From a virus: 64,000 nt of DNA. The notes below the pieces were generated by a model. It ran no database searches. It saw only the letters and a list, made by a program, of their open reading frames with translations, and was not told the origin of the DNA. The position numbers and the translations under genes were made by a program. The stretch lies in IMG/VR virus record IMGVR_UViG_3300043425_000861; one strand, 5' to 3'. Of the stretch, positions 35,643 to 64,000 are shown one piece after another. Positions within the stretch are counted from its first letter, which is position 1, and each line of letters begins with the position of its first letter.

Positions 35643-35645
35643 ATA

Positions 35646-36047
35646 ATGAAAAAAGTTTGGGTAAATGGGACATTTGATGTTGTACATATTGGTCATATTA
35701 AACTTCTTGAGTTTGCGAAATCATTTGGCTCCGTTACTGTTGGATTGGACACAGATGAAAGAGTTCGTTCAAAAAAGGGAGAATCAAGACCGTTCAACAC
35801 ATTGGTTAATAGGATGGATTTTATTTCGTCTATACGTTTTGTTGATAATGTGGTATGTTTTGACACTGACGAAGAATTGGTAAATCAAATTAAAAAATTA
35901 GAACCTGATGTGATGGTCATTGGTGGTGAATATAGGTATAAACAAATAATAGGATTAGAACACGTCCCACACATTGAATTTTTTGAAAAGATTGACGGGT
36001 ATTCTTCTAGTAAAATTTTAAATTATGAGAATAATAGTAATAGGTGA
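35646..36047 (+). CDS. cytidylyltransferase-like nucleotidyltransferase (RfaE domain II/HldC-like)
   Basis: NGTFDVVHIGH, KGESRP, YSSS. Confidence 0.88.
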   Translation: MKKVWVNGTFDVVHIGHIKLLEFAKSFGSVTVGLDTDERVRSKKGESRPFNTLVNRMDFISSIRFVDNVVCFDTDEELVNQIKKLEPDVMVIGGEYRYKQIIGLEHVPHIEFFEKIDGYSSSKILNYENNSNR

Positions 36048-46224: not shown

Positions 46225-46404
46225 ATTATAAGTTTTATACAAAGATAGTATATTTTCCAAAAAATTCCAGAAATTTTTTTTTCGGTTTTTAGAAATATAT
46301 TTCCATTTAAAGGTTTTTACCCCCCGAATGTATAGGGATATTATAGGAATTAGAAATATAGTTCCAATTTCCCCGATTTTTTCCGGAAAAATTTCAGTCG
46401 GAGC

Positions 46405-46520
46405 ATTGTCCCCCCTATTAGACAAGGTAAAAACCCTATATATAAGGGGGGATACGGGAGGGGGGAGGGGGTACATATAGGTATAGGGGGGTATACCCCA
46501 CCCCATAACCGGTGGACTTG
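46405..46520. other. G-tract region at the divergent transcription switch (possible genome end, pac site or origin)
   Basis: GGGGGG-ATAC-GGG-A-GGGGGG-A-GGGGG...GGGGGG-TATA-CCCC; genes run minus to the left and plus to the right. Confidence 0.45.
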
Positions 46521-46640
46521 TTTTCACCTACCTGTTCGGGTGTTCTTAACATTCATTAACAAAAAAATATACCGAAGTATTAGGATTTCTCATATAACCT
46601 TTATACATTTACATATCGTTTCACACTAACCCCTACTAAA

Positions 46641-47012
46641 ATGAAAGTAACAGAAAAAGAGTATCAAGAGTCAATGAAGTTGGTTGAGAAGTACAACCGA
46701 CTAATCTCAAAACACGAGGACATCATCAAGACCTACTACAAGAATCTTGTTAATACCAATTCCTCCGTTCCCGTTCCTCCCACCTTTGATAGTATTCACA
46801 TTTGGGATTTGAACTTGAATGTGTACACATTTAATATCCTTAAAGATAAGACCAATATCCGTACTCTTGGGGATATATGTAGAACTCAACCTTACGAGTT
46901 GTTCAAGATAAGAGGTCTTGGTAAGGATAGACTATATAAGTTGAATGACTTAATCGAAAAGGACTATAAGTTTAGGTGGTTTCAAAGTCACGGACTTGGG
47001 AGGGGTTATTAA
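46641..47012 (+). CDS. protein with RNA polymerase alpha-CTD-like domain
   Basis: IWDLNLNVYTFNILK..NIRTLGDI.....ELFKIRGLGK matches the alpha-CTD pattern. Confidence 0.7.
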   Translation: MKVTEKEYQESMKLVEKYNRLISKHEDIIKTYYKNLVNTNSSVPVPPTFDSIHIWDLNLNVYTFNILKDKTNIRTLGDICRTQPYELFKIRGLGKDRLYKLNDLIEKDYKFRWFQSHGLGRGY

Positions 47013-47413
47013 CCCCTCTTTTTTTTGTCCAATAATTTGTATCGTAGTAAAAACAACAAACGATAATATGTCCAACAGCTTTTGATGATACAAACAAAAA
47101 ATAAAAAAACCCAAAACCAAATTTTTTCCTGAGTTTTTTTTAATGTCTACCGGTTATTTGATGAGGTCGAAAGCTGTTTGACATTTTCCGTGGACGGTAT
47201 CCGAAAAAATGTGGATAACTATGTGGAAAACTTTTGACCAAAATATTAGGATATATGGATTATATTATTTTACTTTGTATTGTTGTTGAGGGGGTTGGTA
47301 ATAAGGGTTAAAAATTTTAACATTTCTTAACAAAGTCTTAACACAAAATATTAGGTTTATTCATTTTTATTTCCGTACTTTGTCCTATCGTTAAACAATT
47401 AAACAATAACACT

Positions 47414-48022
47414 ATGTCAAATCAAGTAAAAGAAATCGTATCAGTACCTAACAATGAGTGGGTATCAGTAGTAGGGGAAGTTTTATCCAATGTAAATAAC
47501 CCTACATTCAGTTCCTTTGTATCAAAGGTAAAAGTTAAAATGAATCAGTACCTTGACTATTGGATAATCAATGAGGAAGGTAAGAAGAAGAAAAATCCTA
47601 ACCCTACCAAAAATCCTTACTACGAAGAAGGTATCATTAACCACTCTCGTAAGGTACAAATTAACACAGGTTTTGACTATGTTAAGAGTGTGAACGGAAG
47701 ATTGGAGAGAGAAGGTAAAGAGGGTAACTTTGAAGGTCAAGACAATTGGTTTGAGGTTATCAGTAAGGGTTTGGTAACTGACAAGAGTACTCGTACCAAG
47801 TTGTACTTTCGTTATCAGTACCTTAAAACAAGTACCCAAGACCAAGAGTTCTTATTTCAAGGTAACCAAATTGAAAAGAGATTATTTGAGAGTTTTATGA
47901 CTGAAAAGTCAAACTACGAAAATCAAGGTTTGGATAACCCACTACAATTCCAAGTGTGTGATTTGAACAATATCTTAAAGATATCAATCGGGGGTGTAAC
48001 CTACGAAAGAGAGTTAGTGTAG
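47414..48022 (+). CDS. hypothetical early protein (paralog of 56133-56648)
   Basis: Shared KVxMN...NxYYE..I.H...DY...F-x-GN-x-IEK-x-LF. Confidence 0.8.
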   Translation: MSNQVKEIVSVPNNEWVSVVGEVLSNVNNPTFSSFVSKVKVKMNQYLDYWIINEEGKKKKNPNPTKNPYYEEGIINHSRKVQINTGFDYVKSVNGRLEREGKEGNFEGQDNWFEVISKGLVTDKSTRTKLYFRYQYLKTSTQDQEFLFQGNQIEKRLFESFMTEKSNYENQGLDNPLQFQVCDLNNILKISIGGVTYERELV

Positions 48023-48342
48023 TGTGAGTAGTTTAACAACTGAAAAGGGGTGTAGAAATACACTCCTTTTTTTTTGTCTTACATATTCCGAGTCGGAGGA
48101 AGACGGGTCGGAAATGTCTTACAGCTTCTCGGTCAAAAAAAAGTTTAATAAAAATTTGTTGTGTGAAAAATTCTTCTTGTGTCAGGAAGTTAAAGATGTC
48201 TTACAGCTTTCGGGTATTGTCTTACATAACCGGTGGACATCTTTGAAGAGTCACCGTCACGGGTTGTTAAAAAAAATTTAACACAAAATATTTGGATATA
48301 TGATTTATATTGTTTTATTTTGTCTTACTAAACATTAAGGAT

Positions 48343-48636
48343 ATGACAAAAGAATACATTCAAGAACAATTACAATTCAACCCAAAGTGGATTGAAAGAG
48401 GTTTGGTGGTTTTGTATAACAGACAAACCCAAGATGAGAAAGAAAATGTAATGACCAAGTATGAGAACGGAGTAGGTTTCAATGGTAGTGATGTGAAGTA
48501 TCTAACCTATTGTAGTAAGTGGGTATTGAGTGGTAGACATTTGAGTGGTGTCCACTTAAACAAGTGTGGTAAGATGTTGAAGAAGTATTGGAAACAAATA
48601 CTACAAGAGATAGAGAAAAAGAAAAGGGAGAATTAA
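48343..48636 (+). CDS. hypothetical early protein
   Basis: LYNRQTQDE..T..NGVGF..D...KYWKQ. Confidence 0.8.
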   Translation: MTKEYIQEQLQFNPKWIERGLVVLYNRQTQDEKENVMTKYENGVGFNGSDVKYLTYCSKWVLSGRHLSGVHLNKCGKMLKKYWKQILQEIEKKKREN

Positions 48637-48853
48637 CTCCCTTTTTTTATGTCCATACATCATCATTGTAATCTAATTACAATCAACTGAAATGTCAAAC
48701 AGCTTTCAGTGTGGTATTTGTCTTACAGATAACCGGTGGACATTTCTTCACCATCAGAGTTCCCTCAAAACTTTAACATTTCTTAACAAAGATAAATTTG
48801 GTGGTTTCATATAAAGATATTACTTTTACATCATAATCAAAAACACATACACT

Positions 48854-49102
48854 ATGTCAAAGTTTCAAAAAGTTATCGGTCAAATCGGTTTTACACTTAT
48901 CGGTCTATTCGGTTTGTGTGTAGTCCTTACCATTCTTTCTTCCGACTATCGTGGAGAAGAAGAATACAATCGTTATGTTGTAATTCAAGAATTTTTATTA
49001 AATTGGTACACGGTTACAATGTGTATTGTCGGTATGTTGTTCGTATCATTCACTTGGTTTAAGTTTGAACCAAAGAGAAGGAATAGACCAACGACTTTCT
49101 AA
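48854..49102 (+). CDS. 2-TM membrane protein
   Basis: Two hydrophobic segments; own promoter. Confidence 0.75.
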   Translation: MSKFQKVIGQIGFTLIGLFGLCVVLTILSSDYRGEEEYNRYVVIQEFLLNWYTVTMCIVGMLFVSFTWFKFEPKRRNRPTTF

Positions 49103-49305
49103 AAGAAAAATTTACAAGGTTGTAATGTCAAGGTGATGTCTAACAGCTTCACCTTGATTTTTTCGTTGTCCAAATAACCGGTGGACATTTTCGGTGGTAC
49201 AGATGATGATAAAAACTTTAACACTTCTTAACAAAAATAAATTTGGTATTCTCGTATAAGGGTTATATATTTGTATATCGTTAAACAATTAAATACATTT
49301 ATCAA

Positions 49306-49512
49306 ATGGAAAATCAAGAAAACAAACTAAAAGTAAAGTTGAGTCCGTTCAAGTCCGACCTTACATTTAATGAGTGGGTGGAGAAATACAAAGTTGGTAG
49401 TGGTTATGTGGAACCGACAAAGTATTTTCAAGGTAATCCTTCGTGTGGTGTCAAACCCATAAACATTGAGGAAAACAAAAACCCCATACTCAAATTCTTC
49501 TTTAATGTATAA
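49306..49512 (+). CDS. hypothetical early protein
   Basis: Own promoter and terminator. Confidence 0.7.
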   Translation: MENQENKLKVKLSPFKSDLTFNEWVEKYKVGSGYVEPTKYFQGNPSCGVKPINIEENKNPILKFFFNV

Positions 49513-49742
49513 AATCAAAACCCTACTTCGGTAGGGTTTTTTTATGTCTAATAATTTGTATCGTAGTAAAAACAACAAACGATAAAATGTCTTCCGGTTA
49601 TTCAGGAGCTGTTTGACATTTTCCGTGGACGAAGGAAATCCAAATTTTATTTGTTAAAAAAATAATTAAAAATTTAACACAAAATAATAGGATATATGGA
49701 TTATATTGTTTTACTTTGTTCTCAAATCAAATCACACTACAA

Positions 49743-49958
49743 ATGAAAGTAATCCAATCACGAATCACTGAACAACCGAAATCGTTGTTCGACCCAATCC
49801 CAAGAGTTTATGTTACATTAGAAAATGGAGTGGAAGAATTCCTATTCGACTACTACCCCGATGAAATCAGTTTCACACCGAGTGAGTTCATTGGTTTGAC
49901 AATCGAAGAATGTAGACACCTCAAATTCAAAAAGGATAGACATTATCTGACAAGTTAA
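49743..49958 (+). CDS. hypothetical early protein
   Basis: LFDYYPDEISF..EFIGLT. Confidence 0.75.
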   Translation: MKVIQSRITEQPKSLFDPIPRVYVTLENGVEEFLFDYYPDEISFTPSEFIGLTIEECRHLKFKKDRHYLTS

Positions 49959-50198
49959 AATCAGACCCTACTTCGGTAGGGTTTTTTTATGATGAAGAAT
50001 CAGTGTTCCGAACACCGATGGTAGGATGTTCAACAGCTTCCCATAGACCAAATAACCGGTGGACATTTCTTCACCACCCGTGTCCCCAAAAAAATTTAAC
50101 ATCCTTTAACACTTTTTTAACTTCTCAAATTTGGAATATCCGAATATTACTTTTATATTTGTATTGTTAATTAATCACACACTAAAAACACTTAACAA

Positions 50199-50405
50199 AT
50201 GAAAAATTTATTTCAAACCCTATTCGGTACAACCTTTCAAAATGTAGTGGACATTGTAAGTCAAATGGACACTATTGAAAAATGTCTATTCCTTTTTTGG
50301 AGTATTTGTGTAGTAATGTTTTATTCTACATTCCTTTACATTATCTATATGGTAGGTAAGGAGTTGGTATCTAAATTAGTATTCACCCTTAAAACTTCAA
50401 AGTAA
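50199..50405 (+). CDS. small membrane protein
   Basis: Hydrophobic central helix. Confidence 0.7.
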   Translation: MKNLFQTLFGTTFQNVVDIVSQMDTIEKCLFLFWSICVVMFYSTFLYIIYMVGKELVSKLVFTLKTSK

Positions 50406-50737
50406 TGTCAAATCACATTTCAACAAAATCAAGATGGGTTTCAACCGATGGTTGGAGAGGTTATTCAGAACCGATTAATGGTATCGGTGGTTGTAACCAC
50501 ACAGGTAGTTGGTCTGATAGTCCGTGTCCAACACACGTTGTGAAGTCAGAGTTAGACGGGTTTAAAAAAATCCTACGTCAAAACAAAATTAAGTTTAAAC
50601 AATTCGTTACTCAAAGTTCCAATGTCTTTTGTCAACACGTTTACATTTTAGTACACCCTTCTGATAGGGAACGTGGATTGGAATTGAGTAAGGAATACCA
50701 ACACCGAGAGGGAATCAGATTATTCTATTCGTGTTAA
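50405..50737 (+). CDS. hypothetical early protein
   Basis: WVSTDGWRGY...SNVFC; TAATG coupling to the upstream gene. Confidence 0.75.
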   Translation: MSNHISTKSRWVSTDGWRGYSEPINGIGGCNHTGSWSDSPCPTHVVKSELDGFKKILRQNKIKFKQFVTQSSNVFCQHVYILVHPSDRERGLELSKEYQHREGIRLFYSC

Positions 50738-51054
50738 TAGTTCCTCCATATACCCCCAACCCTCATCGAGAAACCGGTGGGGGTTTTTTATTGTCTTACA
50801 TATTCCGAGTCGGTGCATCCTGAATCTGTGGAAATGTCTTACAGCTTTTAAGTGTTGTCTTACAAATAACCGGTGGACATTTTACACCTTCCAGGGTGCC
50901 CGGGTCTTAAAAAATTTTAACACTTTTTAACAAAATAAATTTGGTAGTCTCGTATAAGGGTATTACCTTTACACTATGAAAAACGAAATGAAAAACGTAT
51001 TGATTAAATGGTCACTTATTTTAGTATTATTAACAATTAAAACCTTATTAGAAA

Positions 51055-51387
51055 ATGGTAATTAAATTAACACTCCTTAATGGAAACTCGTTTTTGGTAA
51101 ACACAAACCAAGTTCAGACAATCTTCCCTAAATTTTACAAAGGGGATTATGTAACTCGTATTCAGTTCAATCAAGAGACAATGATTCAAGTTCGTGAATC
51201 GGTTGAAGAAATTTACAATCAGATTTGGAACGAAGAAAAAATTGACACACCTTTTGAATTGATAACTCGTGATGATGAAAGTTTTGATTTTAAACCAAGA
51301 CCTCAAAGTCAAAGACCTCGATACAATAATCAACAAGAGTATCGACCTCGTTATGATAGAAACTATAACACCCAAAACCATTATTAA
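51055..51387 (+). CDS. hypothetical protein (FlbD-like N-terminus)
   Basis: IKLT.LNG..F.VN...I...T.I......VRESVEEI. Confidence 0.6.
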   Translation: MVIKLTLLNGNSFLVNTNQVQTIFPKFYKGDYVTRIQFNQETMIQVRESVEEIYNQIWNEEKIDTPFELITRDDESFDFKPRPQSQRPRYNNQQEYRPRYDRNYNTQNHY

Positions 51388-51388
51388 G

Positions 51389-51532
51389 ATGAAAGAGATA
51401 ATAGATACATTCAGAGAACATTACAGAGAAGACAGAAAAGATTTTTGGGAAGTGATAATTGGTTCGATTCTCATTACATCATTCATAGTCTTTATGTTTT
51501 GGTTTGTCGGAACGTTTTGTTACGATATGTGA
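51389..51532 (+). CDS. small membrane protein
   Basis: 47 aa with a C-terminal TM. Confidence 0.6.
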   Translation: MKEIIDTFREHYREDRKDFWEVIIGSILITSFIVFMFWFVGTFCYDM

Positions 51533-51794
51533 TTAGTAGTAGTGTAGTTTAACGATGAGAAATACCCTCGATGAAAGTCGGGGGTTTTCTTTTTGGTCTC
51601 AGTCGAGTCTACAACAGGTACTGGTGAAATGTCTTACAGCTTTCGTATAACCGGTGGACATTTTCGTAGTACAGAACCTTCGGGTACTGAGTAAAAAAAA
51701 ATTAACAGATTTTAACATTCTTTTAACCACGAATATTAGGATATATGGATTATATTGTTTTACTTTGTTACATCATTAAACCATATACTACAAT

Positions 51795-52115
51795 ATGAAA
51801 AATTTAAAAGACGAAAAACAACAATTAGTAAAGAACATTAGTGAGACTAATGACTTTAAAAAGTTAGAATTCACAATCATCAGTTTGATTATGGGTTGGA
51901 CAATCGACAACACTCATCAAGACGAGTACAAGGAGTTGATTAAACTTTCAGTTGGTCGATTGAGAACTTTATCAATCATCAACGGAATTGAACATCCTCT
52001 TATGGATATGGATGTGGACACGGAAGAAGATAGAATTAAAAATTCGTTCCGTTTGTCTTTGTTACATAATGTAATAGAGAAGAAAGAACCAACATTCGAC
52101 TTCAATTTGAATTAG
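51795..52115 (+). CDS. hypothetical early protein
   Basis: Own promoter and terminator. Confidence 0.75.
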   Translation: MKNLKDEKQQLVKNISETNDFKKLEFTIISLIMGWTIDNTHQDEYKELIKLSVGRLRTLSIINGIEHPLMDMDVDTEEDRIKNSFRLSLLHNVIEKKEPTFDFNLN

Positions 52116-52369
52116 GTGTTGTAAATGAATTGTGAAACCCTCGGACTTAAATGTTCGGGGGTTTTTTATTTCCATACCTCATCATTGTAATCTTTTTACA
52201 ATCAACTGAAATGTCTTCCGGTTATTTGAGAGCTGTTTGACATTTTCCGTGGACGAAACCTTCAGAAAAAAATTAACACTTCTTAACATTCTTTTAACTA
52301 CAAAAATTTGGTATTCTCGTATAAAGATTATACATTTGTAACATCATTAACAATTAAACATACTACGAA

Positions 52370-52732
52370 ATGAAAAAAGGAATTTTAATCGATGTTCACA
52401 ATCGTGAAATCAAAGAAGTAGAAATTGAAAAAGGTATTCAATCTATCTACGACCAAATTAAGTGTGACACATTTGATTGTGTTCAAATCCACGAAGAAAA
52501 TGATGTCTATGTAGATGACAACGGACTAATGAACTTAAATGAGAAATCTATGTTCTTTAGTTACAAGGGTTATCCACAACCTTTAAGTGGGAATGGTTTG
52601 ATACTTGGTATCGACCACGAAACGGGTGAAAGTATTGATACCACTTTGACAATCGAAGAAGTTAAAAAGAATGTAACTTTCTTAACTCTATTCGAAATCC
52701 AACTGATGTCAAGATTCGGTGTTTTAAATTAG
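52370..52732 (+). CDS. DUF3846-like protein
   Basis: ILID...I...I-x-C..FD-x-V...YVDDNGL...QPLSGNGLILG. Confidence 0.7.
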   Translation: MKKGILIDVHNREIKEVEIEKGIQSIYDQIKCDTFDCVQIHEENDVYVDDNGLMNLNEKSMFFSYKGYPQPLSGNGLILGIDHETGESIDTTLTIEEVKKNVTFLTLFEIQLMSRFGVLN

Positions 52733-52969
52733 TGTTATAGTGTGGGTTAGTAAGACCACTCCGAAAGGGGTGGTTTTTTTTTGACCACAATCCATCTTGA
52801 GTCAGGACCAGGAGAAATGTTTAACAGCTTTCGAATAACCGGTGGACATTTTCCACTCTTCCGGACGACATCTGATTTTAACATATCTTAACACTTCGTT
52901 AACAAAATAAATTTGGTGGTTTCAAATAAAGGTATTACCTTTATAGTGTTAAAAAAAAACAATACTACT

Positions 52970-53356
52970 ATGGGACAATTCAGTTGGATTACACAAGACA
53001 CGAAAAGGTCAATCTCCTCGATTACTCCTTTTCAAGTAACTATGACAGACCACAAAGGAAACAAGTGGACTGAAAATGATTACGAGGGTTATGGTGAATT
53101 TGGTGGTAAGGACTTCTTTTCACTACTCTCCGAAATGAATGGTGGTAATGGTGACCGAAATCACGGGATTGATTTACGATTTAGTGGTCAACCTTATCTA
53201 TCACCGAACTTGAACGAAGACCCGACAATCGAATGGAAAGATGAAGTTCCCGATGATTGTCCAAGACAAGGTTGGGTAGAGTACGACGAAGATGGTGACG
53301 AACTCCCCGACGAAGATGAAGATGAATGGGAAGACGACGAGGAAGAAGAAGATTAA
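52970..53356 (+). CDS. hypothetical protein with acidic tail
   Basis: MGQFSW...YEGYGEFGGKDFF...DCP-x-QG. Confidence 0.8.
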   Translation: MGQFSWITQDTKRSISSITPFQVTMTDHKGNKWTENDYEGYGEFGGKDFFSLLSEMNGGNGDRNHGIDLRFSGQPYLSPNLNEDPTIEWKDEVPDDCPRQGWVEYDEDGDELPDEDEDEWEDDEEEED

Positions 53357-53590
53357 AAAAGAGACCACTCCGAAAGGGGTGGTTTTTTTTTGTGACCAAG
53401 AAGAAGATGTAACCTTACGGTTCGGGAGAAATGTCTACCGGTTATTTGGAGCTGTTGGACATTTTCGTAGTACAGAACCTTCGGGTACTGAGTAAAATCA
53501 TTAACATCTCTTAACAAAGTTTTAACTACTGATATTTGGTATTCTCATATATAGGTATTACCTTTATACCCTAATCAAACTACTACTATT

Positions 53591-53881
53591 ATGGAAAACA
53601 ATGTAAATGTATTTGAGTTCGGAGTATCGTTAGGTCAAATCGAGTTCGTTCAAAATTGGGACTTAGACCTCAACGATAATTGTTCCGAGGAGAATTGTGT
53701 TAGTGTTTTAGAAAAACTAATGGATACCAATCAATTTGAAATGGAAGAAAAAACATTTGGTATGGTTATTCGAAATGAAGAAAAGGATAACACCTACTTC
53801 GTTCTTACTCGACCTTATGTTGATGGTTGGAGTTGGGACTTTGACCACGAAGACACTATCGAAGTCGAAATCACAATCTAA
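53591..53881 (+). CDS. hypothetical acidic early protein
   Basis: Own promoter and terminator. Confidence 0.75.
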   Translation: MENNVNVFEFGVSLGQIEFVQNWDLDLNDNCSEENCVSVLEKLMDTNQFEMEEKTFGMVIRNEEKDNTYFVLTRPYVDGWSWDFDHEDTIEVEITI

Positions 53882-53981
53882 ATAGAAACCCCTCACACGA
53901 GGGGTTTTTTTATGTCAAGAATTTATCCAACGGTCGTCAGAGTGGAATGTTCAACAGCTATGTTAAAAAAAAGTTTTAAAT

Positions 53982-54027
53982 TTTAACACAAAATATTTGG
54001 ATATATGGATTATATTGTTTTACTTTG
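53982..54027 (+). promoter_or_regulatory. representative early promoter (Bacteroidota sigma-type) with upstream TTAACA
   Basis: TTTGG-atatatggattatattgtt-TTACTTTG; similar copies precede almost every cassette from 46.6 to 62.8 kb. Confidence 0.8.
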
Positions 54028-54050
54028 TGGTATCAAAAATTAGAAAAGAT

Positions 54051-54551
54051 ATGACCACGATTGACAAATTTATTGACGACCAACGAAATTTCGTACTACG
54101 AGTGTTCAAAGGTAAAAGTGAATTATCACCTATGTTGTGTATGTTGACTGAAAAGGAAGGTAAGACCTATACTTCTATGTGTCCTATACCTACTGAACTG
54201 ATGACTGATGAGGGTAAGGATATTATTAGGTACGGAATTGTTGAGAAAGTAAAAGAGTCAATAAAGAAAGATGGTCACAAACTATTGTGTGTGAATTGGA
54301 ATAGTGAAGGGTGGATGTACCAAAGTTCAAAAGAACAATTAAATGAAGTTGATGGTTACTACCGAAAGTTACCACGAACGGAAGTATTGTTAATGTCCTT
54401 TGATACGGAAGAGGGTAGTAAAATCATTACCTACGAAATCGTTAGGAAAATGTCAGTTGGGGTTGATGGACTAAATGAAGAGGTGGAAGTTGAACTTATG
54501 AAACTTGGTGAAAATTTTACAACAAAGGGTAGGTTTACAAATATGTTTTAA
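54051..54551 (+). CDS. hypothetical early protein
   Basis: SEGWM...R-x-EVL...GRF. Confidence 0.8.
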   Translation: MTTIDKFIDDQRNFVLRVFKGKSELSPMLCMLTEKEGKTYTSMCPIPTELMTDEGKDIIRYGIVEKVKESIKKDGHKLLCVNWNSEGWMYQSSKEQLNEVDGYYRKLPRTEVLLMSFDTEEGSKIITYEIVRKMSVGVDGLNEEVEVELMKLGENFTTKGRFTNMF

Positions 54552-54808
54552 TGGTTGACTCGTGTTTTTTGTTATAAAGAGGTAGGACTTTGTCTTACCT
54601 TTTTTTTGTCCACAATCCATCTTGGTTCCCGTCCTGGTAAAATGTTCAACGGCGAAAGCTGTAAGACATCCTCAGCTGTACCCTGATATGACAAGGTTGT
54701 CAAAATAATTTAACACTCTTTAACATTTTTTTAACTACAAATATTTGGATATATCAATTATATTGTTTTACTTTACACTATTAAATCACACACTTAAAAA
54801 AATTAATT

Positions 54809-55093
54809 ATGGAAAGTAGAATTGTAGTAACAAGACGTGGTGACTTCGGTCACGATTGGAACTTGATTGTTGAAACACACAATGGTATCAAGAACTTTTA
54901 TTTGGGACAAGATGTAAAATTTTGTAGTCGAGTATTAGGAATGTCACCAAGAGAAATTGTAAACGAAATCGGTACGGGTGACTTCACCAAAGAAGAAAAT
55001 CTAAAACTATTAGGTAACTTCATTAGTGAACATTTAGGATTGGTTGATGAACAAGTACAAGAATTGGAAACGTGGGAATTGTGTTGTCAGTAA
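54809..55093 (+). CDS. hypothetical early protein
   Basis: FYLGQDVKFCSRVLG. Confidence 0.75.
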   Translation: MESRIVVTRRGDFGHDWNLIVETHNGIKNFYLGQDVKFCSRVLGMSPREIVNEIGTGDFTKEENLKLLGNFISEHLGLVDEQVQELETWELCCQ

Positions 55094-55282
55094 AATCTAA
55101 ACGAAAAGACCTCAACGAAAGTTGGGGTTTTTTTATTTCATTAATAATCAATCTTTTACGAATTCAAACTTCAACTGTTACAATGTCGAACAGCTATGTT
55201 AAAAAAATAATTAAAATTTTAACATAAAATATTTGGTTATATAAATTATATTGTTTTATTTTGTATTCTAAAATTAACCACT

Positions 55283-55480
55283 ATGTTACTACCAAAGTAT
55301 GAAGAAGTCCCAATGAAATGTATCAAAGTAAGTTTTAGTGAAGACAAGTTCTATCACATATTCTTACAAGATGAAAATGATGTCAGTAGTTGTATGTCCA
55401 TAACCGATAATATGGGTTTACCACTTGACTTTAACGAATGGGATAATGTTCTACTATTTCTTAATCTTAAAACACACTAA
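55283..55480 (+). CDS. hypothetical early protein
   Basis: Follows a promoter. Confidence 0.65.
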   Translation: MLLPKYEEVPMKCIKVSFSEDKFYHIFLQDENDVSSCMSITDNMGLPLDFNEWDNVLLFLNLKTH

Positions 55481-55482
55481 AA

Positions 55483-55776
55483 ATGAAACATTTTGAAGAT
55501 GTAAAAAAGGAATTAACCAAAGGTGGAATTGATTGGGTATTAGGTACGGAAACGGGTTGGAGTGAGAACTCCTTAATCTTTGATGGGGGTGATTGTAAAA
55601 TTCTACTCTATGTCGAGGAAGATGAAAAAGGTAATTTGTCCTTAACTTATCACGACCTATTTGAAGAGGGTGAATACTCACCAATCTTTGACAACACGAA
55701 TGAAGAGACCACAACAAGTTATCGTGGTACTGATACTTCGGTTAAAGGTATGTTAAAAAACTTGGACTTAATTTAA
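55483..55776 (+). CDS. hypothetical acidic protein
   Basis: 97-aa ORF followed by a terminator. Confidence 0.7.
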   Translation: MKHFEDVKKELTKGGIDWVLGTETGWSENSLIFDGGDCKILLYVEEDEKGNLSLTYHDLFEEGEYSPIFDNTNEETTTSYRGTDTSVKGMLKNLDLI

Positions 55777-56132
55777 GTTTGTAAATCTTAAACACGACCA
55801 CTCCGAAAGGGGTGGTTTTTTTTTTGTCCAAGAAGATGTAAGGTTACAGGGGTGGGAGAAATGTTTAACAGCTTTCACACCAACAAAATAACCGGTGAAC
55901 ATTTTTTCACCCAACAGGTGTCAAAAAATTTTAACACTTCTTAACAAAGTTTTAACACAAAATATTAGGTTTATTCATTTTTATTTACGTACTTTGTATT
56001 GTTGAAATGAGGGAGATATATCAAAAAAAAATTAACATTCTTTAACATTCTTTTAACACAAAAAATTTGGTATTCTCATATAAAGATTATACATTTGTAT
56101 TGTTAAATTATTAAACACTAAAAGTTACTACT

Positions 56133-56648
56133 ATGGTAAATCAAACATTGTTAGTTGACTACGATACTATGGTATCAGTATGTCGTGGAATTACGAAAGG
56201 TCAATTCGTAAACCTATTCACTTCAACGAAAGTGAATATGAATAAGGGTGGTCGTCAGGGGTTGAATACCTACTACGAGAAAGTGATTAAACACGTAAAA
56301 GGGAATGTCCGTCCTTTGTGTGACTACGAGTTACGTATGGACAACGAGAATGAGAAACGTGGTTTACCCGAACACGAGTTGGGACAAAACAAAGTTGGTA
56401 GTCACGTGGACGAGGTTGGTTGTGTTACTCGTAACGAAAAGTTAAATCGTTACTACTTTATGTACGAGTTCTTCGACAACGTACGAGTAAAGGTTGACTA
56501 CGAGTTCGAGGGTAATTCTATCGAGAAACAACTTTTCGACCAATGGGTTATCAAGTCGACAAAGAACAACGTGAATGTTCGTCAAGTGAATATCGACAAC
56601 ATCAACGAAATCACTATCGACAAAACGAAGTACATTAGAGTAAGGTAG
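56133..56648 (+). CDS. hypothetical early protein (paralog of 47414-48022)
   Basis: See 47414; both genes have tandem double promoters. Confidence 0.8.
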   Translation: MVNQTLLVDYDTMVSVCRGITKGQFVNLFTSTKVNMNKGGRQGLNTYYEKVIKHVKGNVRPLCDYELRMDNENEKRGLPEHELGQNKVGSHVDEVGCVTRNEKLNRYYFMYEFFDNVRVKVDYEFEGNSIEKQLFDQWVIKSTKNNVNVRQVNIDNINEITIDKTKYIRVR

Positions 56649-56875
56649 GGTTAAAGTTCATAGGTGAAAGGGGGTGTAGTAATACACCCCTTTTTTTTTG
56701 ACCACAATCCATCTTGGTTCGGGACGTAATCCGAAATGTCTACCGGTTATTTGAAAGCTGTAAGACATTCCAACTCAGATGGGACGTCCTATTTTCTTAA
56801 CACTTCTATAACAAAATAAATTTGGTAGTTAAATAAAAAGGTATTACTTTTACATCATAATCAAAAACACTATTA

Positions 56876-57211
56876 ATGGAAACACTAATTATCACATCAT
56901 CATCAAATCAAGGACTTAATGATAAGATTAAGTCATACACCGAACAAGGTTATAGAGTGGTAGGTACACACCAAGTTGTAGAGACACACCACCAAAATCG
57001 TTTTCGTGGTACTCAACACGTGGATACAATTATCGAACGTGAGTATAGTATTACTATGATAAAACACCAACCTACTGATGAGGACGTACACCCATCATTA
57101 AAAGTTGGGATATACTACCGATACCGAGGGGGAGACGTCAAGATATATGATGAGGACGAAATGAGAAACGAGTTCGAGGAAAAATTATCTAACCTAATAA
57201 ACCCATTGTAA
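56876..57211 (+). CDS. hypothetical early protein
   Basis: C-terminal YDEDEMRNEFEEKL resembles the C-terminus of 58621-58974. Confidence 0.75.
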   Translation: METLIITSSSNQGLNDKIKSYTEQGYRVVGTHQVVETHHQNRFRGTQHVDTIIEREYSITMIKHQPTDEDVHPSLKVGIYYRYRGGDVKIYDEDEMRNEFEEKLSNLINPL

Positions 57212-57212
57212 T

Positions 57213-57422
57213 ATGAGTGAAGTTTATGTAATTGTCTATAAAGACACCACGTTTAATCACGAAGACACCATTGAGGGAGTGATAGAAAAAGAAAATCAAT
57301 TTTCCGAGTGGTTAATTCGACACAATAACGATAGACGTGAATTAGATGAGGACAACGACTACTTTGTGGAAGAAACCGAAGAGGACTTTCAGTTGGTACG
57401 AGTTCCATATTTCAAATCTTGA
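57213..57422 (+). CDS. hypothetical acidic protein
   Basis: 69-aa ORF. Confidence 0.7.
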   Translation: MSEVYVIVYKDTTFNHEDTIEGVIEKENQFSEWLIRHNNDRRELDEDNDYFVEETEEDFQLVRVPYFKS

Positions 57423-57551
57423 TGAGGAGATAAAATGTTAATGGAATGTCTAACAGCTTCCATTAACACTTTTTAACAATCTTTTAACGAGAAATACTTG
57501 TTTATATCGTTTATATTGTTTTACTTTGTACTTCATTAAAATCTACACAAA

Positions 57552-57803
57552 ATGAACAAAGAAAAAGTAACCCAAGTTGTTAAAGGAATGATTATCGACC
57601 GAATAACCGAAATGGTGGAAGATATGTCGAACCACGACTTTGTCGAGAATGTAATGGATAGACTCGAAAACGAAGGAGTTGTAATGGACTTTGAAAACGA
57701 AGAAGTCCAAGAAGAAATTACCGAACTTATCGGTACCCAAGTTTTACCACTACTTCACAAGATGTCGGAGTATATACTCGGTAAGGAAATTCCTATCAAG
57801 TAA
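57552..57803 (+). CDS. hypothetical acidic protein
   Basis: Own promoter and terminator. Confidence 0.7.
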   Translation: MNKEKVTQVVKGMIIDRITEMVEDMSNHDFVENVMDRLENEGVVMDFENEEVQEEITELIGTQVLPLLHKMSEYILGKEIPIK

Positions 57804-58052
57804 TTCTCAAACCGAGTTAAAAACCTCACAAGAAATTGTGGGGTTTTTTTATGTCCAAGAAATTACAACCTTGTAAATTTTCAAAAATCTTGGAATGTTC
57901 AACAGCTTTCAAATAACCGGTGAACATTTTTTACCCCAACAGGTACGAAAATTATTAACAGATTTTAACAAAACTTTTTATCAAAGTATTAGGAAATATC
58001 ATTTTTATTTATCACCTTTGTATTGTCTACTAACCAATAGACATCTACAACT

Positions 58053-58376
58053 ATGGACACATTGTTCAAATCACAAATCGAAAATACTCTTACTACCAAT
58101 GTGGAGTTTGAGTTCTCTTTGGACTTCCAAGGACAAGTTGAGTACATTGAGTCGGAGGACACCGACCAATTTTTGGAATTGGAACGAGTAGTTCTATTCC
58201 TTGTTGAAAAAGATTTAATCCCTATCAACGAGAGAACCGAGGGTGTTGTAACCATCAAAGATGGTGTTGTCGAAATCGACTACAAGACTTGTTCACAACT
58301 CGGTGAGGATTGGGGTGATGATGTTTGGGACGAACACATTACCAAAGTTTCAGTACAAGATTTGGTAGGGGAATAA
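58053..58376 (+). CDS. highly acidic protein (DNA-mimic candidate)
   Basis: Very Asp/Glu-rich 107 aa; mimic role is speculation. Confidence 0.7.
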   Translation: MDTLFKSQIENTLTTNVEFEFSLDFQGQVEYIESEDTDQFLELERVVLFLVEKDLIPINERTEGVVTIKDGVVEIDYKTCSQLGEDWGDDVWDEHITKVSVQDLVGE

Positions 58377-58409
58377 TCCCCTACTTTTTTTCATTATAAA
58401 ACTACAACT

Positions 58410-58616
58410 ATGTCAAAGTATCAATGTTTATCTCCCGATGGTTTCACGATTGAATTCGACAAGTGGACGTACCCCTCAAAAAAACAAATGATGGAGTCCT
58501 TCAACAAATGGAAAAAGAGGTACGAACAACAAGGGTATTATAGTTCCAACAACTACGGACGAATTCCATTAGACCAATTAGAAAATTATTGTACATTCAA
58601 AACCATTAAATCTTAA
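58410..58616 (+). CDS. hypothetical early protein
   Basis: LSPDGFTI...W..RY..QGYYSS..GRIPL. Confidence 0.75.
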   Translation: MSKYQCLSPDGFTIEFDKWTYPSKKQMMESFNKWKKRYEQQGYYSSNNYGRIPLDQLENYCTFKTIKS

Positions 58617-58620
58617 AACT

Positions 58621-58974
58621 ATGTTAAAAGTTAAAGACCACACGAGGTATCGTCATTTCGATTACGAAAGTGAACCAAGTACTACGTACCAACTTGGTGA
58701 TGTGTTACTCAAAAAATACGATGATGAATTAAGTTCGGAAATTGGAGTAGTAATACAAACATTCTCCGATGGTGATTTTAGAACTGATATGTGGGGTATG
58801 AGTTCATATAGTGAAGTATTACGAGCTAAACTATCTGATGTTAAAGAATATAGACCTGACCTTCTATCAGATTTAATTATTAACATAGATGTTTACTTCA
58901 CTACCGATGATAATGGTGAGATAACATTTGATGTTGAGGAAATGGAAAATGAGTTAATCCACTTGACTATGTAA
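58621..58974 (+). CDS. hypothetical protein
   Basis: EIGVVIQ...FRTDMWG; carries the first Ala codon after the GpC-free zone. Confidence 0.75.
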   Translation: MLKVKDHTRYRHFDYESEPSTTYQLGDVLLKKYDDELSSEIGVVIQTFSDGDFRTDMWGMSSYSEVLRAKLSDVKEYRPDLLSDLIINIDVYFTTDDNGEITFDVEEMENELIHLTM

Positions 58975-59352
58975 AACATTAATGATATATTTTTGTTATA
59001 GTTTAGTGTTTAGTTTGTTTGGTAGTAAGTTTAAAGGTGGATAGAAATGTCCACCTTTTTTCATTTATAACATCATCTTCACCTGGAATCCCAGGTCAGA
59101 TGTTCAACAGCTTTGTGGCCGTAAGACATTTGTCTGGTTTAGCCCGAGTCCCATTCTTCAGAATAACATATTGATTAGCAACTCCTATTTCATTTAGTGT
59201 GAAACCATTTATAGCCGTAAGACATTCAATGCAGCGCGCGCTGGTCCTGATTCCAGTGTTAAAAAAATAAATTAAATTTTAACAAAAAAACTTATCAAAA
59301 TATTTGGTTTATAAATTCTCGTGTAGTAATTTTGAATTCTAAATTAAATCGT

Positions 59353-60219
59353 ATGACAGAACAAACTATCACCACAGGTAACGAGATTACCGACATTCTC
59401 AATCAGACAGGTCTGAATTGGAATGTAAGAACAGAAGAATTACAAACCACATCAGGAATTATTATCCCTGATAAGATTGGTTTAATCCGTGATGACAACA
59501 ACACTTGTCTTGGCGTTCACTCGGGTTCGTATGTACCTTATCAGAATCAAGAGTTATTGGAATTGTTATTCCGTATCTCTCAACAAACAGGATTGAAACT
59601 TCATACAGGGGGTTCATTCAAAGGTGGTGAGAAGGTATGGTTTCAATTAAAGTCAGAAGACTTGAAGTTGTCCAACGACAGGATTGAAGGTTACATTAGT
59701 GGGTTCAACTCATTTGATGGAAGAACATCATTAGCGTTTGGTAACTCGAATGTTACAGTATCTTGTCAAAATACTTTTTGGAAAGGTTACAGAGATGTTG
59801 AAACCAAATTGAGACACTCATCAGCGATGAAACCAAAGATTGAAGAAATTTTGAGAAAGATTGATGTTCTATTACAAGAAGAACAACAAACCTTCGACAA
59901 CATTCAACGTCTTGGTAATGTTAGAATGACACAACAAGTTAAAGACTTGGTTATTCGTAGATTGTTCGACATTGAAAAGGAAGAGAGACTTGATAGTGAT
60001 GACTTATCTACTAACAAGAAAAACAAACTCTCTCGTTTCTACATTGACTTGAATGGTGAGTTACAACAAAAGGGTGATAACCTTTGGGGTTTATTTAGTG
60101 GTGTAACAAAATATACCACACACTCTATGAAGAAAGGTGATAACACGGAAGGTAAAATCTTCGGACAAGTCGGTTACAAAGAGAGACAGATTTGGGACAA
60201 CCTCGTAGAATTGGTGTAA
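59353..60219 (+). CDS. DUF932/DUF945-family protein
   Basis: GLNWNV, Y-x-P-x-QN, GSFKGGEKVW, NSFDG, VSCQNT, RH, NLWGLF-x-GVT-x-Y. Confidence 0.85.
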   Translation: MTEQTITTGNEITDILNQTGLNWNVRTEELQTTSGIIIPDKIGLIRDDNNTCLGVHSGSYVPYQNQELLELLFRISQQTGLKLHTGGSFKGGEKVWFQLKSEDLKLSNDRIEGYISGFNSFDGRTSLAFGNSNVTVSCQNTFWKGYRDVETKLRHSSAMKPKIEEILRKIDVLLQEEQQTFDNIQRLGNVRMTQQVKDLVIRRLFDIEKEERLDSDDLSTNKKNKLSRFYIDLNGELQQKGDNLWGLFSGVTKYTTHSMKKGDNTEGKIFGQVGYKERQIWDNLVELV

Positions 60220-60514
60220 GACATAATAGGTTGATGTGATTTGAAACCCTCGGACTTTTGGTTCGGGGGTTTTTTGTTTCTGTGCACTGTACCTGCACAG
60301 CACTGGAGTCAATGTTCAACGGCTTGTGGCTGTAAGACATTCACCTGCACCAGCGCTGCACTGGCGTGCTGCGTTTATCGTCGCCGTAAGACATTGGACC
60401 TGGGATTTAGCGCTGTTCTGTTCTTAACATTCTTTAACATTCTTTTAACAAAAAAAATTTGGTAGTTAAATAAAAACATATTACTTTTACATCATCATCA
60501 AAAACAACAAAGAA

Positions 60515-60733
60515 ATGATTAAATCAATCGAAGAAAAAGAAACCAAGTTAGAAATTGACTTGACAGGTCCTGACGGAAACGCGTTTGTACTATTAGGGTA
60601 CGCGAGTAGATTCTCTAAACAATTAGGTTTAGATGGGAAAACCATTCAATCAGAAATGATGAAAGGAGACTACGAACATCTCGTAGATACATTCGACAAA
60701 TATTTTGGGGAATACGTTACGTTATATCGTTAA
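60515..60733 (+). CDS. hypothetical phage protein
   Basis: IDLTGPDGNAFVLLG...M-x-GDYEHL. Confidence 0.8.
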   Translation: MIKSIEEKETKLEIDLTGPDGNAFVLLGYASRFSKQLGLDGKTIQSEMMKGDYEHLVDTFDKYFGEYVTLYR

Positions 60734-60809
60734 CAAAATTTTAACTAAAATTATTTGGCGGTTAAATAAAAAGTTATTACTTTTACATCATCATCAAAAC
60801 AACAAAGAA

Positions 60810-61061
60810 ATGTCAGAGTTAAAAACAAAAACTGATGTCCTATCACATTGGACTAAAAAATCGAAAGAGGTTTTACAGGGTAAGACCATAGTAGAAGTTC
60901 GTTATCTTAATGACGAAGAAATGGAAATGATGGGTTGGTATAAACGACCTGTGTGTTTCTTCCTTAATGATGGTACAAGTTGTATCTTGTCCTGTGATGA
61001 TGAAGGGAATGATGGTGGTGTATTATTTTATGGTAGTGATGGAGTTCTACCAACATTATAA
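60810..61061 (+). CDS. hypothetical protein
   Basis: L-x-GKTI..VRY..E....GW...S-x-DDEGNDGG. Confidence 0.75.
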   Translation: MSELKTKTDVLSHWTKKSKEVLQGKTIVEVRYLNDEEMEMMGWYKRPVCFFLNDGTSCILSCDDEGNDGGVLFYGSDGVLPTL

Positions 61062-61080
61062 ACCTTTAAATCAAAAAGAG

Positions 61081-61314
61081 ATGAGTTACCTAACATTAAG
61101 AGATTGGAGAGAAAACCACGTCAAAGTTATTTTTAAACTTGACGGAAGTAAGGTAGAGGTTAAATCAACTGATAGTGATATAACCTACTTTAAAAGTACC
61201 GATAGAAAAATTGTTCAAGAGTTTATCGACAATTCGACAAAACAACTGACAACAATCTACGAACTTAATTTCGAGAACATTCAACAAGATTTTCTAAACG
61301 TAATAAATAATTAA
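61081..61314 (+). CDS. hypothetical protein
   Basis: 77-aa ORF in an operon. Confidence 0.65.
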   Translation: MSYLTLRDWRENHVKVIFKLDGSKVEVKSTDSDITYFKSTDRKIVQEFIDNSTKQLTTIYELNFENIQQDFLNVINN

Positions 61315-61318
61315 AAAA

Positions 61319-61762
61319 ATGGGTTACACACACTATTGGAATTATACCAAACCATCAAAAGATTTTGATGATGAGTACATCAACGTACTATTAGACATCA
61401 ACCTCGGATTAAAAAATCTCGACAAGAGTATCGTATTACGAGGTGGAGACGGAACAGGTTTACCTGAATTCACAAGAGAAAGAATTTGTTTCAACGGAGA
61501 CGGACAACAAGGTTTAAACCACGAAACATTTTATTTTGATAAAGACCCTACGGACTTTACCTTTTGTAAGACAAACAATAAACCCTATGATTTTTTTGTA
61601 GGAGTTTGTTTACTCTCACTGGCGAATAGAATAACAGGGTTTGAGTTCAGTTCAGACGGAGACAATCGAGAGTGGGAACCAATTATTTTGTTCTATCAAA
61701 AGTTTATTGGTGAGATTAAACCAAGTATTTTAGAAAAATTATTAAGATTAGAAGAATTTTAA
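61319..61762 (+). CDS. hypothetical phage protein
   Basis: MGYTHYW...FNG...HETF...FCKT..KPYD...SSDG. Confidence 0.8.
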   Translation: MGYTHYWNYTKPSKDFDDEYINVLLDINLGLKNLDKSIVLRGGDGTGLPEFTRERICFNGDGQQGLNHETFYFDKDPTDFTFCKTNNKPYDFFVGVCLLSLANRITGFEFSSDGDNREWEPIILFYQKFIGEIKPSILEKLLRLEEF

Positions 61763-61864
61763 CAAAAAATATTTGGAAGTTAAATAAAATTGTATAACTT
61801 TGTAATCGTATTCATTATTCTATAACTAACTCGGGGACGGGACGAAATCCGAACAAAAATTATC

Positions 61865-62611
61865 GTGAATAAAATTCAAACAGGTAAAAAAGTGGGTGAA
61901 ATCTTTGAGACCAAAGATTACTCAATCTTCAAATTTAGAGAAGATAATCGTATCGTAAATCAAAACCACGTTAGAAAACTCTCTCAACGTATGAAAGAGA
62001 ATGGTTGGTTATCAACATCAGTAGTTACTATCAATGGTAGTGGTGAAGTTATTGACGGACAACACAGGATTAAGGGAGCGATTATCGCGGGTGTCCCTGT
62101 CCGTTACAAATGTGTGAGAGGGGCGGGTAGTGATGAAATGACATCAATGAACACACTTCAACGAAATTGGTCTCCATTTGACCACTTAAATAAATTCGTG
62201 AAGAAAGGAAATCCTAACTACATAACTTTCCAAAAGTTTACGGAAGAATTTCCAATGTTCAAATATACTGAATGTGCGATGTTGTTACAAAATAGTGTAA
62301 CATCAATCAAGAGAGATAATTTTGATAGTGGTAATTATGTTGTGAGAAACGAGAAGAAAGGTCGATTATGGGGACAACACTTGTTAGAGTTGAAACCATA
62401 CTTTGAGAAGTACTACAACAAATCAATCTTTGTGAGAGGTTTCATCAAAATCATTTCTAACAAGAAAGAGTTTGTGTTTGAAGAATTTTTACACAAAGTA
62501 AAGTTGAGACCTAATATGTTAGTTCCTTGTGGTACAACGGAACAATATATTGAAATGATTGAGAACATTTACAACTATAAGAGAAGTAATAAAGTTAATT
62601 TAAGATTTTAG
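61865..62611 (+). CDS. ParB/Srx-like N-terminal domain protein
   Basis: NR-x-V...HV-x-KL...M...GW...VIDGQHR. Confidence 0.75.
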   Translation: MNKIQTGKKVGEIFETKDYSIFKFREDNRIVNQNHVRKLSQRMKENGWLSTSVVTINGSGEVIDGQHRIKGAIIAGVPVRYKCVRGAGSDEMTSMNTLQRNWSPFDHLNKFVKKGNPNYITFQKFTEEFPMFKYTECAMLLQNSVTSIKRDNFDSGNYVVRNEKKGRLWGQHLLELKPYFEKYYNKSIFVRGFIKIISNKKEFVFEEFLHKVKLRPNMLVPCGTTEQYIEMIENIYNYKRSNKVNLRF

Positions 62612-62853
62612 TTGTAGATGATGAGTGAGAAAAGGGGGTGTAGAAATACACTCCTTTTTTTTTGTCCAAGAAGATGTAACCTTACAGGGTGGGAGGAATG
62701 TTCAACGGCTTTCAAATAACCGGTAGACATTTCTTTCCGACGCGCTGAGGAAATCTTTTAACAAAATTTTTAGAAAATAATTGGTTCAGAATTTGGAAAT
62801 ATCAATGATATAGATGTATATTTGTGAATAATTAATCATCTCAATCAAATCAA

Positions 62854-63117
62854 ATGAAAAAGAAAACACAACACACACTCTTAAAGGGTGAAGGTATCCA
62901 CCAACACACATTGTATGGGGATTTCAAAATCGGTTCTGAAACCGAAGTAGATTTTATGGAAGTGGAAGTATCCGAAGAAAGTTTACTTAAACACGAGAAA
63001 CCTAATGGTTCTTTTGGTGAACACAAGACACTAAAAATTGAACAGGGTAAGTGGGTGATGGGTAAACAAGTAGAGTACAATCCTTTTAATCAAACCATTT
63101 CAAGAGTTTGGGACTAA
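62854..63117 (+). CDS. hypothetical protein
   Basis: GEG-x-H-x-H...L-x-HE...EH....G-x-W...Q-x-EYNP. Confidence 0.75.
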   Translation: MKKKTQHTLLKGEGIHQHTLYGDFKIGSETEVDFMEVEVSEESLLKHEKPNGSFGEHKTLKIEQGKWVMGKQVEYNPFNQTISRVWD

Positions 63118-63521
63118 TGGCTAATCCACTAATTCATTCAAAATCCAGTGTAAAAAGGTGGGGTGGAAAAGTAGAAGACTACATATCCATTCACGAGTTA
63201 ATTGATAGTCCGAAGGCGACTATGAACAATAACTCATCAAGATTATTAACACATAATACTTGGTTTGCGTATCATATATGTCCGAAGATTTTTGGATATA
63301 ACATTACGAACTCTGATGGTAAGAGTGTTGATGTAGTTGATATTGCGATGTTACATATCGCAGAGGACTTCCGTATGAAGTTCGTTCCGACACCACAGGA
63401 TTACTTACAACATTTACAAGTCCAACCCTGGATGAATAATGGTGTGAAGGTTTTGGATAGTGTGGACGCCCAAAACATTGTTAAACAACTAAACGAAAAA
63501 TTACATTATGAAATCAGTTAA
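63117..63521 (+). CDS. DUF6915-like protein
   Basis: P-x-x-HS-x-SS..WGG..DY..IH...DS-x-K...H...HI-x-ED. Confidence 0.7.
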   Translation: MANPLIHSKSSVKRWGGKVEDYISIHELIDSPKATMNNNSSRLLTHNTWFAYHICPKIFGYNITNSDGKSVDVVDIAMLHIAEDFRMKFVPTPQDYLQHLQVQPWMNNGVKVLDSVDAQNIVKQLNEKLHYEIS

Positions 63522-64000
63522 AGAAGAAATGATTGACAAGTGGAAAGAACTCAATATCAAAAGTTGTAGTATGGAGTTCTCTTGTGGTGGTGATAGTATG
63601 AACGACTATTCATTCACCTTTTACACCAACGACAACAAAGAAGTTGATGGTGAAGAACTTACTGACTACTTTGAAACCGAAGTATTCAATGAGGTTGAGT
63701 TTTATGAAGTTTCTGATGGACATTACATTGGTGAGTCTGGTGTTGTTGAAATCACATTGGAAGAAGATGATGAACCATACTTTTCGTATTACAAAGATGC
63801 GAGTTCTGAATGGTCAGAGAGATTTTTCGGACAAATGAACGTACCACTAACCGATACCGAACTTTCTTTTATTAAAGAAAAGGTATTGAATATGAATGGT
63901 AGTGATTGGGGTGAACCAAATATCAACTACAAAATAGATTGTATCATTACTGATGAAGAACAGGAAATGATTAACAATTTAATTAAAAGAATTGATGATG
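63508..64000 (+). CDS. hypothetical acidic protein, runs off the window end
   Basis: Open frame from MKSVKEEMIDKW with an FSCGGDS motif. Confidence 0.7.
   Translation, partial: MKSVKEEMIDKWKELNIKSCSMEFSCGGDSMNDYSFTFYTNDNKEVDGEELTDYFETEVFNEVEFYEVSDGHYIGESGVVEITLEEDDEPYFSYYKDASSEWSERFFGQMNVPLTDTELSFIKEKVLNMNGSDWGEPNINYKIDCIITDEEQEMINNLIKRIDD

Follow-up and report, generated by a model that had tools for sequence, protein, structure and literature searches.

Within the window analysed here (64,000 nucleotides, one strand, of the IMG/VR virus record IMGVR_UViG_3300043425_000861) we identified a zone (46405-58825) from which the dinucleotide GpC has been almost completely purged, and with it every alanine (Ala) codon from a block of consecutive small genes. 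GpC was found 24 times where about 361 occurrences are expected (observed/expected ratio, O/E, 0.07), as compared to an O/E of 0.64 upstream of the zone in the same window, while CpG is present at a normal frequency (O/E 0.96). The 24 open reading frames (ORFs) between 46641 and 58616 comprise 2,459 codons without a single Ala and without a GC in any frame (233 expected); TGC, GGC, AGC and CGC codons, as well as codon junctions at which G meets C, were each counted zero times, and the probability of finding no Ala across these ORFs is below 1e-16 even on the assumption of a 1.5% Ala content. The counts bear out what a sequence-only reading had estimated by eye (some 25 GpC instead of a few hundred, plentiful CG, 24 Ala-free ORFs of ~2,450 codons, and no NGC codons or G-to-C junctions). 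Its further statement that the rest of the window uses GCA and GCT freely was wrong at synonymous sites: in the upstream genes synonymous NGC codons reach only 4-10% (vs 19-48% for the other two-fold NNC codons), the G-to-C junction O/E is 0.36, and 554 of the 658 coding GCs (84%) are Ala codons. The extent that it proposed (to ~58.8 kb) holds for the strict zone, but a weaker purge trails on to 64 kb; in this tail Ala amounts to 1.3%, 12 of its 16 Ala codons are GCG, and GC returns sooner in spacers than in coding DNA.

The constraint acts on DNA and not on protein, as had been claimed from the missing codons. Apart from the absence of GC in all frames, the spacers from terminator to promoter (with the motif described below masked) retain 3 GCs where 66 are expected, as compared to a GpC O/E of 0.4-0.68 in tRNA-free intergenic DNA elsewhere. 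Furthermore, GC overlapping CG is better tolerated, as GCG and CGC alike and on both strands (six genomes). The purge is still under selection: among 1,031 substitutions between close strains, GC-creating ones number 2 (91 expected) and CG-creating ones 93 (113 expected). The lost GC turns up mainly as AC (1.32) and GT (1.20), and Val and Thr are slightly raised in the zone proteins. At conserved Ala columns of the DUF3846 and DUF932 families the replacement is mainly Gly, Ser or Cys, with Val at some columns; thus Ala4 of the DUF3846 family (85 of 124 members) is Gly in the window and Ala73 (95 of 124) is Ser, in agreement with the Gly/Ser exchanges suspected at the outset for this protein.

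The zone begins sharply at a conserved landmark (Table 1), inside which lies the last GC before it (46403) and at which gene direction flips from the minus to the plus strand; the landmark is a candidate genome end, packaging site or origin. The genes that follow are arranged in cassettes, in the order Bacteroidota-type promoter, one small gene, terminator. A relaxed promoter match (TTTG / TAnnTTTG, a pattern fitted to these same sites) precedes 21 of the 24 genes against a background of 3.8%; the strict pattern yields 16 matches vs 6 by chance, and terminator-like sites in the array number 24 (8 +/- 2.8 in shuffles). Between the terminator and the next promoter sit half-sites of a repeated motif that carry nearly all of the GCs surviving in the zone. 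Their survival is non-random, as 21 of the 24 are AGCT, a word belonging to the type A half. The complementarity of paired halves is no higher than that of shuffled partners (and lower in two lineages), which argues for protein-binding-like sites on duplex DNA; a hairpin or attC reading was ruled out on the same ground. Rfam gave no match to the motif, and a scan of IMG/VR returned one chance match only. Other lineages carry different motifs at the equivalent positions, most of them ending in GC; the motif of the G004 lineage holds none, so that GC is not a universal part of these sites. A second short word, GTATTACA (in the window often GTCTTACA), lies inside or beside motif pairs at 48090-51640 and in loci L018, L027 and L060, and is possibly a host-factor site. 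Locus L018 (1-7838) holds a mosaic array, its early cassettes having the motif of one lineage and its later ones that of the window.

Table 1. Coordinates of the GpC-free zone and associated features (window positions)
Feature	Position	Strand	Basis or remarks
Landmark: A/T box, C-tract, TATATA, G-tracts	46385..46500	+	Conserved, single-copy; ~49 IMG/VR contigs, once per genome
GpC-free zone	46405..58825	.	GpC O/E 0.07; CTAG, CATG, GATC 0
44 half-sites of a 13-16 bp motif, type A AATGTYYWACRGC and type B AATGTYYACCGGT	46509..62735	.	Single or inverted pairs, both orientations
24 small Ala-free ORFs	46641..58616	+	Mostly one gene per promoter-gene-terminator cassette
RNA polymerase alpha-CTD-like domain protein, 123 aa	46641..47012	+	PF03118, E 8e-7
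202-aa hallmark protein, usually first gene after landmark	47414..48022	+	Weak Sm/SH3 (WYL-like) barrel with insertion
DUF3846 protein; conserved Ala positions are Gly, Ser	52370..52732	+	Family alignment
171-aa paralogue of the 202-aa protein	56133..56648	+	Among the 24 Ala-free ORFs
Array tail, relaxed purge	58621..64000	+	Coding GC ~0.06-0.25 of expected; includes DUF932 gene (59353-60219)
First GC-dense, GCGC-rich non-coding spacer	59110..59241	.	10 GC; coincides with strict-zone end
Second GC-dense spacer	60284..60413	.	15 GC; densest 150 nt of window

Synteny places the window among those jumbo phages of freshwater Bacteroidota that encode bS21. With the relative G005 it shares 43 proteins (median identity 56%, largely collinear) and the landmark; bS21, which falls in a part of the genome outside the window, is present in all five relatives (5/5) and in G004 lies on the opposite strand beside the terminase, portal and capsid genes. 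The relatives (up to 316 kb, 30-35% G+C, bS21 beside terminase) are syntenic with the window. The zone is clade-wide, and the search for it in related phages that had been recommended gave a positive answer: 66 metagenome loci carry GC-poor zones of 2 to >12 kb that start at the same landmark, of which each genome has a single copy, in contigs reaching 334 kb. Whole-genome GpC in the relatives is 0.5-0.65 with its minimum at the landmark, where the lowest 5-kb value is found in G003, G004, G005 and G006, and the coding GC O/E (pooled over loci) is 0.04 in the first 2 kb past the landmark and ~0.3 beyond. The gene content of the arrays varies between strains. In G004 a 165-aa gene with 7 Ala (L140:18692-19189), perhaps a recent insertion, stands in an otherwise GC-free zone, and L081 is similar. 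In one subclade the cassette array is missing together with the 202-aa gene and the strong purge, but the landmark is kept, and GpC dips beside it; past the landmark G006 (L218), of this zone-less subclade, has a large family of paralogues of ~110 aa that are encoded on either strand and share their N-terminus.

The 202-aa protein is the hallmark of the array, and 109 of its 120 homologues are without Ala, down to ~51% identity. Its presence or absence (6 with, 7 without) follows that of the zone, but the association tracks two subclades and is hence not independent evidence. Four homologues with 5-7 Ala (P0034, P0040, P0110, P0118) and a distant one in GC-rich DNA (L068, O/E 1.58) could serve as natural controls. 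The fold is confidently predicted (predicted local distance difference test, pLDDT, 93), and the model resembles PafBC, BrxR, DriD and CapW weakly (Z 4.0-4.5 over ~75 residues, root-mean-square deviation 3-3.6); no match was found in Pfam or, by Foldseek, in the PDB, and in BFVD it matched only uncharacterised phage proteins. No cultured relative was found, as this protein had no match among cultured phages and the best terminase match is 29% identical. The 202-aa protein may be what binds the repeated motif, for which it is a candidate. Family matches among the zone proteins are few overall. A ParB-like protein with a DGQHR motif (61865-62611) is present in 13 related arrays.

The purge extends to further words. 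Within the zone CTAG is absent (0 vs 40 expected on both strands) and CCAG/CTGG is reduced to 4 (44 expected), while CAG/CTG is halved only there (0.52 vs 0.98 outside), as likewise in several other lineages, and is a possible second short target. Pooled zones compared with the rest of the genomes gave 0.07 vs 0.42 for CTAG and 0.28 vs 0.51 for CATG. We argue from this additional loss that sequence-specific attack threatens the zone more than the remainder of the genome, and that the answer of the clade is avoidance, on which it relies, as GATC is absent (0) from four large genomes (G003, G004, G005 and G006). Both GATC and CATG are missing from the part of the window in which they were counted (1-58825), and G003 is also without CCGG. 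Since G003-G005, with a GATC count of 0, nevertheless conserve a D12-class (Dam-like) methyltransferase, this enzyme probably targets another word.

At its far boundary the zone shows the opposite tendency. The GC-dense non-coding spacers found there have counterparts in G004, G005, G012 and G016 as well as in several metagenome loci, many of them containing GCTGCGC-like words, and that of G005 is the densest 150 nt of 310 kb. The density of GCGC in array spacers (23 in 25 kb) is ~9x that of the remaining intergenic DNA (5 in 48 kb; nominal p 3e-7, the counts not being independent), and GCGC is absent from the spacers of four genomes without the zone. Coding GC steps up at the first dense spacer in six cases (the window, G004, G005, G012, L026 and L038); in L042, L060, L065 and G016 coding GC is already up before it. 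It thus seems that GC is deliberately retained there, with the spacers acting as a decoy, a stop signal or a cut site.

The purge of GC is a property of the DNA that is graded with distance, actively kept, anchored at the landmark and laid over an array of early-type promoters. As to its cause, we tentatively favour, with somewhat less than even confidence, that the first-entering DNA was cleared of GC in order to escape a GC-recognising nuclease of the host. The zone would be exposed in the host cytoplasm before any other part of the phage chromosome; there host RNA polymerase would read it from the cassette promoters (the promoter matches being observed, their use presumed), and there it would meet a putative host-side nuclease or nicking enzyme whose target has the observed shape of a GC step on duplex DNA and which would be weakest where GC overlaps CG. 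Free GC would then be costly within the zone, in which Ala and all other GC codons are seen to be replaced; the only GCs to survive would be those of operator-like sites, which a phage protein probably covers, the GC-dense spacers just beyond may be decoys, and later DNA would be mostly protected by an early gene product and lose only its synonymous GCs. Such an entry of DNA into a GC-attacking defence was one of two models offered by the sequence-only reading. The sharp start at a conserved landmark, the gradient with distance, the promoters before 21 of 24 genes and the restriction-type word loss speak for it, though neither a genome end nor an enzyme was found.

Several further observations weigh against a host nuclease acting on first-entering DNA. 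Among 300 Bacteroidota genomes no GpC-poor host was found (six low-ratio genomes, when checked, were merely G+C-rich), and Bacteroidota host loci have a GpC of 0.9-1.3, so that no host shows the decay expected of long-term GpC methylation. We know of no GC-specific host nuclease, and a literature search turned up none. The terminase is T4 gp17-like (23-29% identical); T4 packs headfuls with permuted ends, and packaging of this type would abolish a fixed entry order. The contig ends near the landmark are scattered. Moreover, the GC-dense spacers fit a signal on the side of the phage as well as they fit a decoy.

This last point leads to an explanation that the sequence-only reading missed together with the spacers themselves, namely that the reader of GC is the phage's own. 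An early or virion nuclease would shred the DNA of the host at its GC steps during the time in which nothing but the GC-free leader has entered the cell, or a GC-binding entry gate would halt or cut transfer at the first dense spacer (like the T5 injection stop signal), and the GCGC-rich spacers would set the leader's end. We regard such a self-signal as doubtful though worth serious consideration, and the nuclease as more likely encoded by the host than by the phage. The enrichment of GCGC in array spacers, its absence from those of zone-less genomes and the rise of coding GC at the first dense spacer (window and five relatives) are in line with it, and the hosts, in which GpC is normal, would be good targets; how T5 spares its own DNA is still open (PMC10644984; 10.64898/2026.04.02.716235). 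The four loci and genomes in which coding GC rises ahead of the dense spacer do not fit, two-step entry is required, no nuclease family match was obtained among the zone proteins (Pfam, PHROGs, PADLOC), and the only near-universal one among them is predicted to be an Sm/WYL-like barrel. If true, this reading would amount to self/non-self discrimination by removal of a dinucleotide, at the price of an early proteome of 19 amino acids.

We consider improbable the second model of the sequence-only reading, in which the phage's DNA is modified by the phage itself at GpC and the early genes have to be left unmodified so that host polymerase can read them. R.CviJI has RGCY specificity; here tolerance is higher for GCG and CGC, and the surviving word AGCT is itself an RGCY word. 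No GpC-directed enzyme (M.CviPI, C5 methyltransferase/TET, R.CviJI) was found as a conserved gene in the clade. GC-centred specificity does exist, in M.CviPI and in phage C5 methyltransferase/TET clusters (PMC8256090), and pathways combining C5 methyltransferase, TET and glycosyltransferase act on GpC (PMC8256090; 10.1101/2023.12.21.572611). Core GT-B and GT2 glycosyltransferases and the D12-class methyltransferase are conserved in the clade, and the genome-wide thinning of GpC would cut the cost of modification. The enzymes themselves gave no support in the relatives screened (genomes 81-100% complete): C5 methyltransferase was present in 2 of 11 only, as an accessory gene in a variable region, TET in none of 5 (three records >90% complete; diverged forms not excluded) and TGT-like proteins (PF01702, a model that DpdA can escape) in none of 5, and no convincing QueC or FolE motif was seen in those searched. 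Furthermore, the promoters are similar in all cassettes, yet the purge fades with distance.

Less probable still is that the landmark marks an origin or packaging start instead of an entry end, GC having been removed through a small molecule that binds GC or through an enzyme tied to replication or packaging. The landmark, present in single copy, is retained with its GpC dip even by the array-less subclade, and the terminase is of T4 type, but the strong purge is one-sided and confined to lineages with an early cassette array, and the additional loss of CTAG and CATG is left unexplained. The joint action of many ordinary restriction systems with GC-containing sites is very unlikely: known sites of up to 10 bits cover 71% of the GCs in zone-like DNA, and other palindromes are avoided, but the same sites cover CG at 87-93% while CG is untouched, and therefore cannot explain the loss (a control that largely refutes this account); in addition, 29% of the 233 coding GCs should persist where none does, and AGCT is the very word kept. 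Equally little credence can be given to an unselected local hypermutation by which the C of GpC would be deaminated, with which the reappearance of GC as AC and GT and the slight excess of Val and Thr agree, since replacement of conserved Ala by Gly, Ser or Cys is out of reach of one deamination and motif GCs persist at >20 sites. A cause at the level of RNA or tRNA (a GC-cutting RNase or the loss of tRNA-Ala) would suit the faster return of GC in tail spacers than in coding DNA, but is the least likely of all, given the absence of GC from three frames and from probably untranscribed spacers and a context tolerance of the same direction on both strands.

Elsewhere in the window, a cluster of 15 tRNA genes (39-2643) does not include tRNA-Ala, which is also not among the tRNAs called in G003 and G004 and is represented once in G005. 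UDP-galactopyranose mutase-like, glycosyltransferase and ADP-heptose synthesis-like genes, recognised by eye from their N-termini (17694-22579 and 35292-36771), probably belong to sugar pathways. DUF932 and DUF3846 are not on the list of a plasmid leading-region preprint, and MANTIS was considered and judged not relevant.

The avoidance of sites in first-entering DNA has precedent (PMC10644984, PMC12455610). Like the zone, the first-step-transfer DNA of T5 and BF23 (PMC10644984; 10.1101/866236) consists of ~10 kb of small early genes, is selectively exposed to restriction, and has a repeat-rich non-coding stretch at its far end (iss); both have fewer restriction sites than the remainder of their genomes (in the zones, CTAG 0.07 vs 0.42 and CATG 0.28 vs 0.51), and the relaxed matches before 21 of 24 genes suggest early promoters of host-polymerase type in the zone as well. 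By contrast, in a computed control the T5 region has a GpC O/E of 1.52 and lacks no 4-mer, and the Flavobacterium phage immuto shows no loss (GpC 1.08). In T5 this DNA forms part of a long direct terminal repeat at the end entering first; the relatives of the window are all classed as linear in IMG/VR, with scattered contig ends near the landmark. In ~15 zone proteins scanned no PHROG or Pfam match to A1/A2-like genes was found, no direct search for A1 having been made. In Murciavirus (PMC12455610), too, it is only in the early-injected, leading region that losing a target motif makes a difference, but there the target is one long Type I site and here a step of two bases, paid for with an amino acid. 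The bS21-encoding freshwater Bacteroidetes jumbo phages described previously (PMC9723584) match the relatives found here in bS21 beside terminase, size and G+C; the abstract and results of that report make no mention of GpC depletion, the landmark or an Ala-free block. The PeSL cassettes of T4-like phages (PMC2839356, PMC4122927) resemble the array in their shuffled small early genes and terminator-promoter units; unlike them, the array has an additional inverted motif that differs between lineages and lacks pairing covariation between its halves, and the PeSL abstracts describe no compositional purge. Our literature search uncovered no description of an amino acid lost through the purging of a dinucleotide.

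Taken together, we consider the zone an extreme form of first-entry site avoidance, real across the clade and apparently unpublished, which points to a GC-specific enzyme. Whereas known first-entry avoidance concerns sites of 4-8 bp, here a two-base step is avoided and one amino acid is lost from a block of proteins throughout a widespread clade. The finding predicts such an enzyme, either a new defence of the host or a nuclease or gate of the phage, and as a two-base cutter this enzyme would be useful; it also offers a testable answer to the question (still open for T5) of how a phage comes through early nuclease activity without modifying its DNA. Moreover, the zone supplies natural Ala-free versions of known folds, and as a marker readable from sequence alone it may point to candidate entry ends in uncultured jumbo phages.

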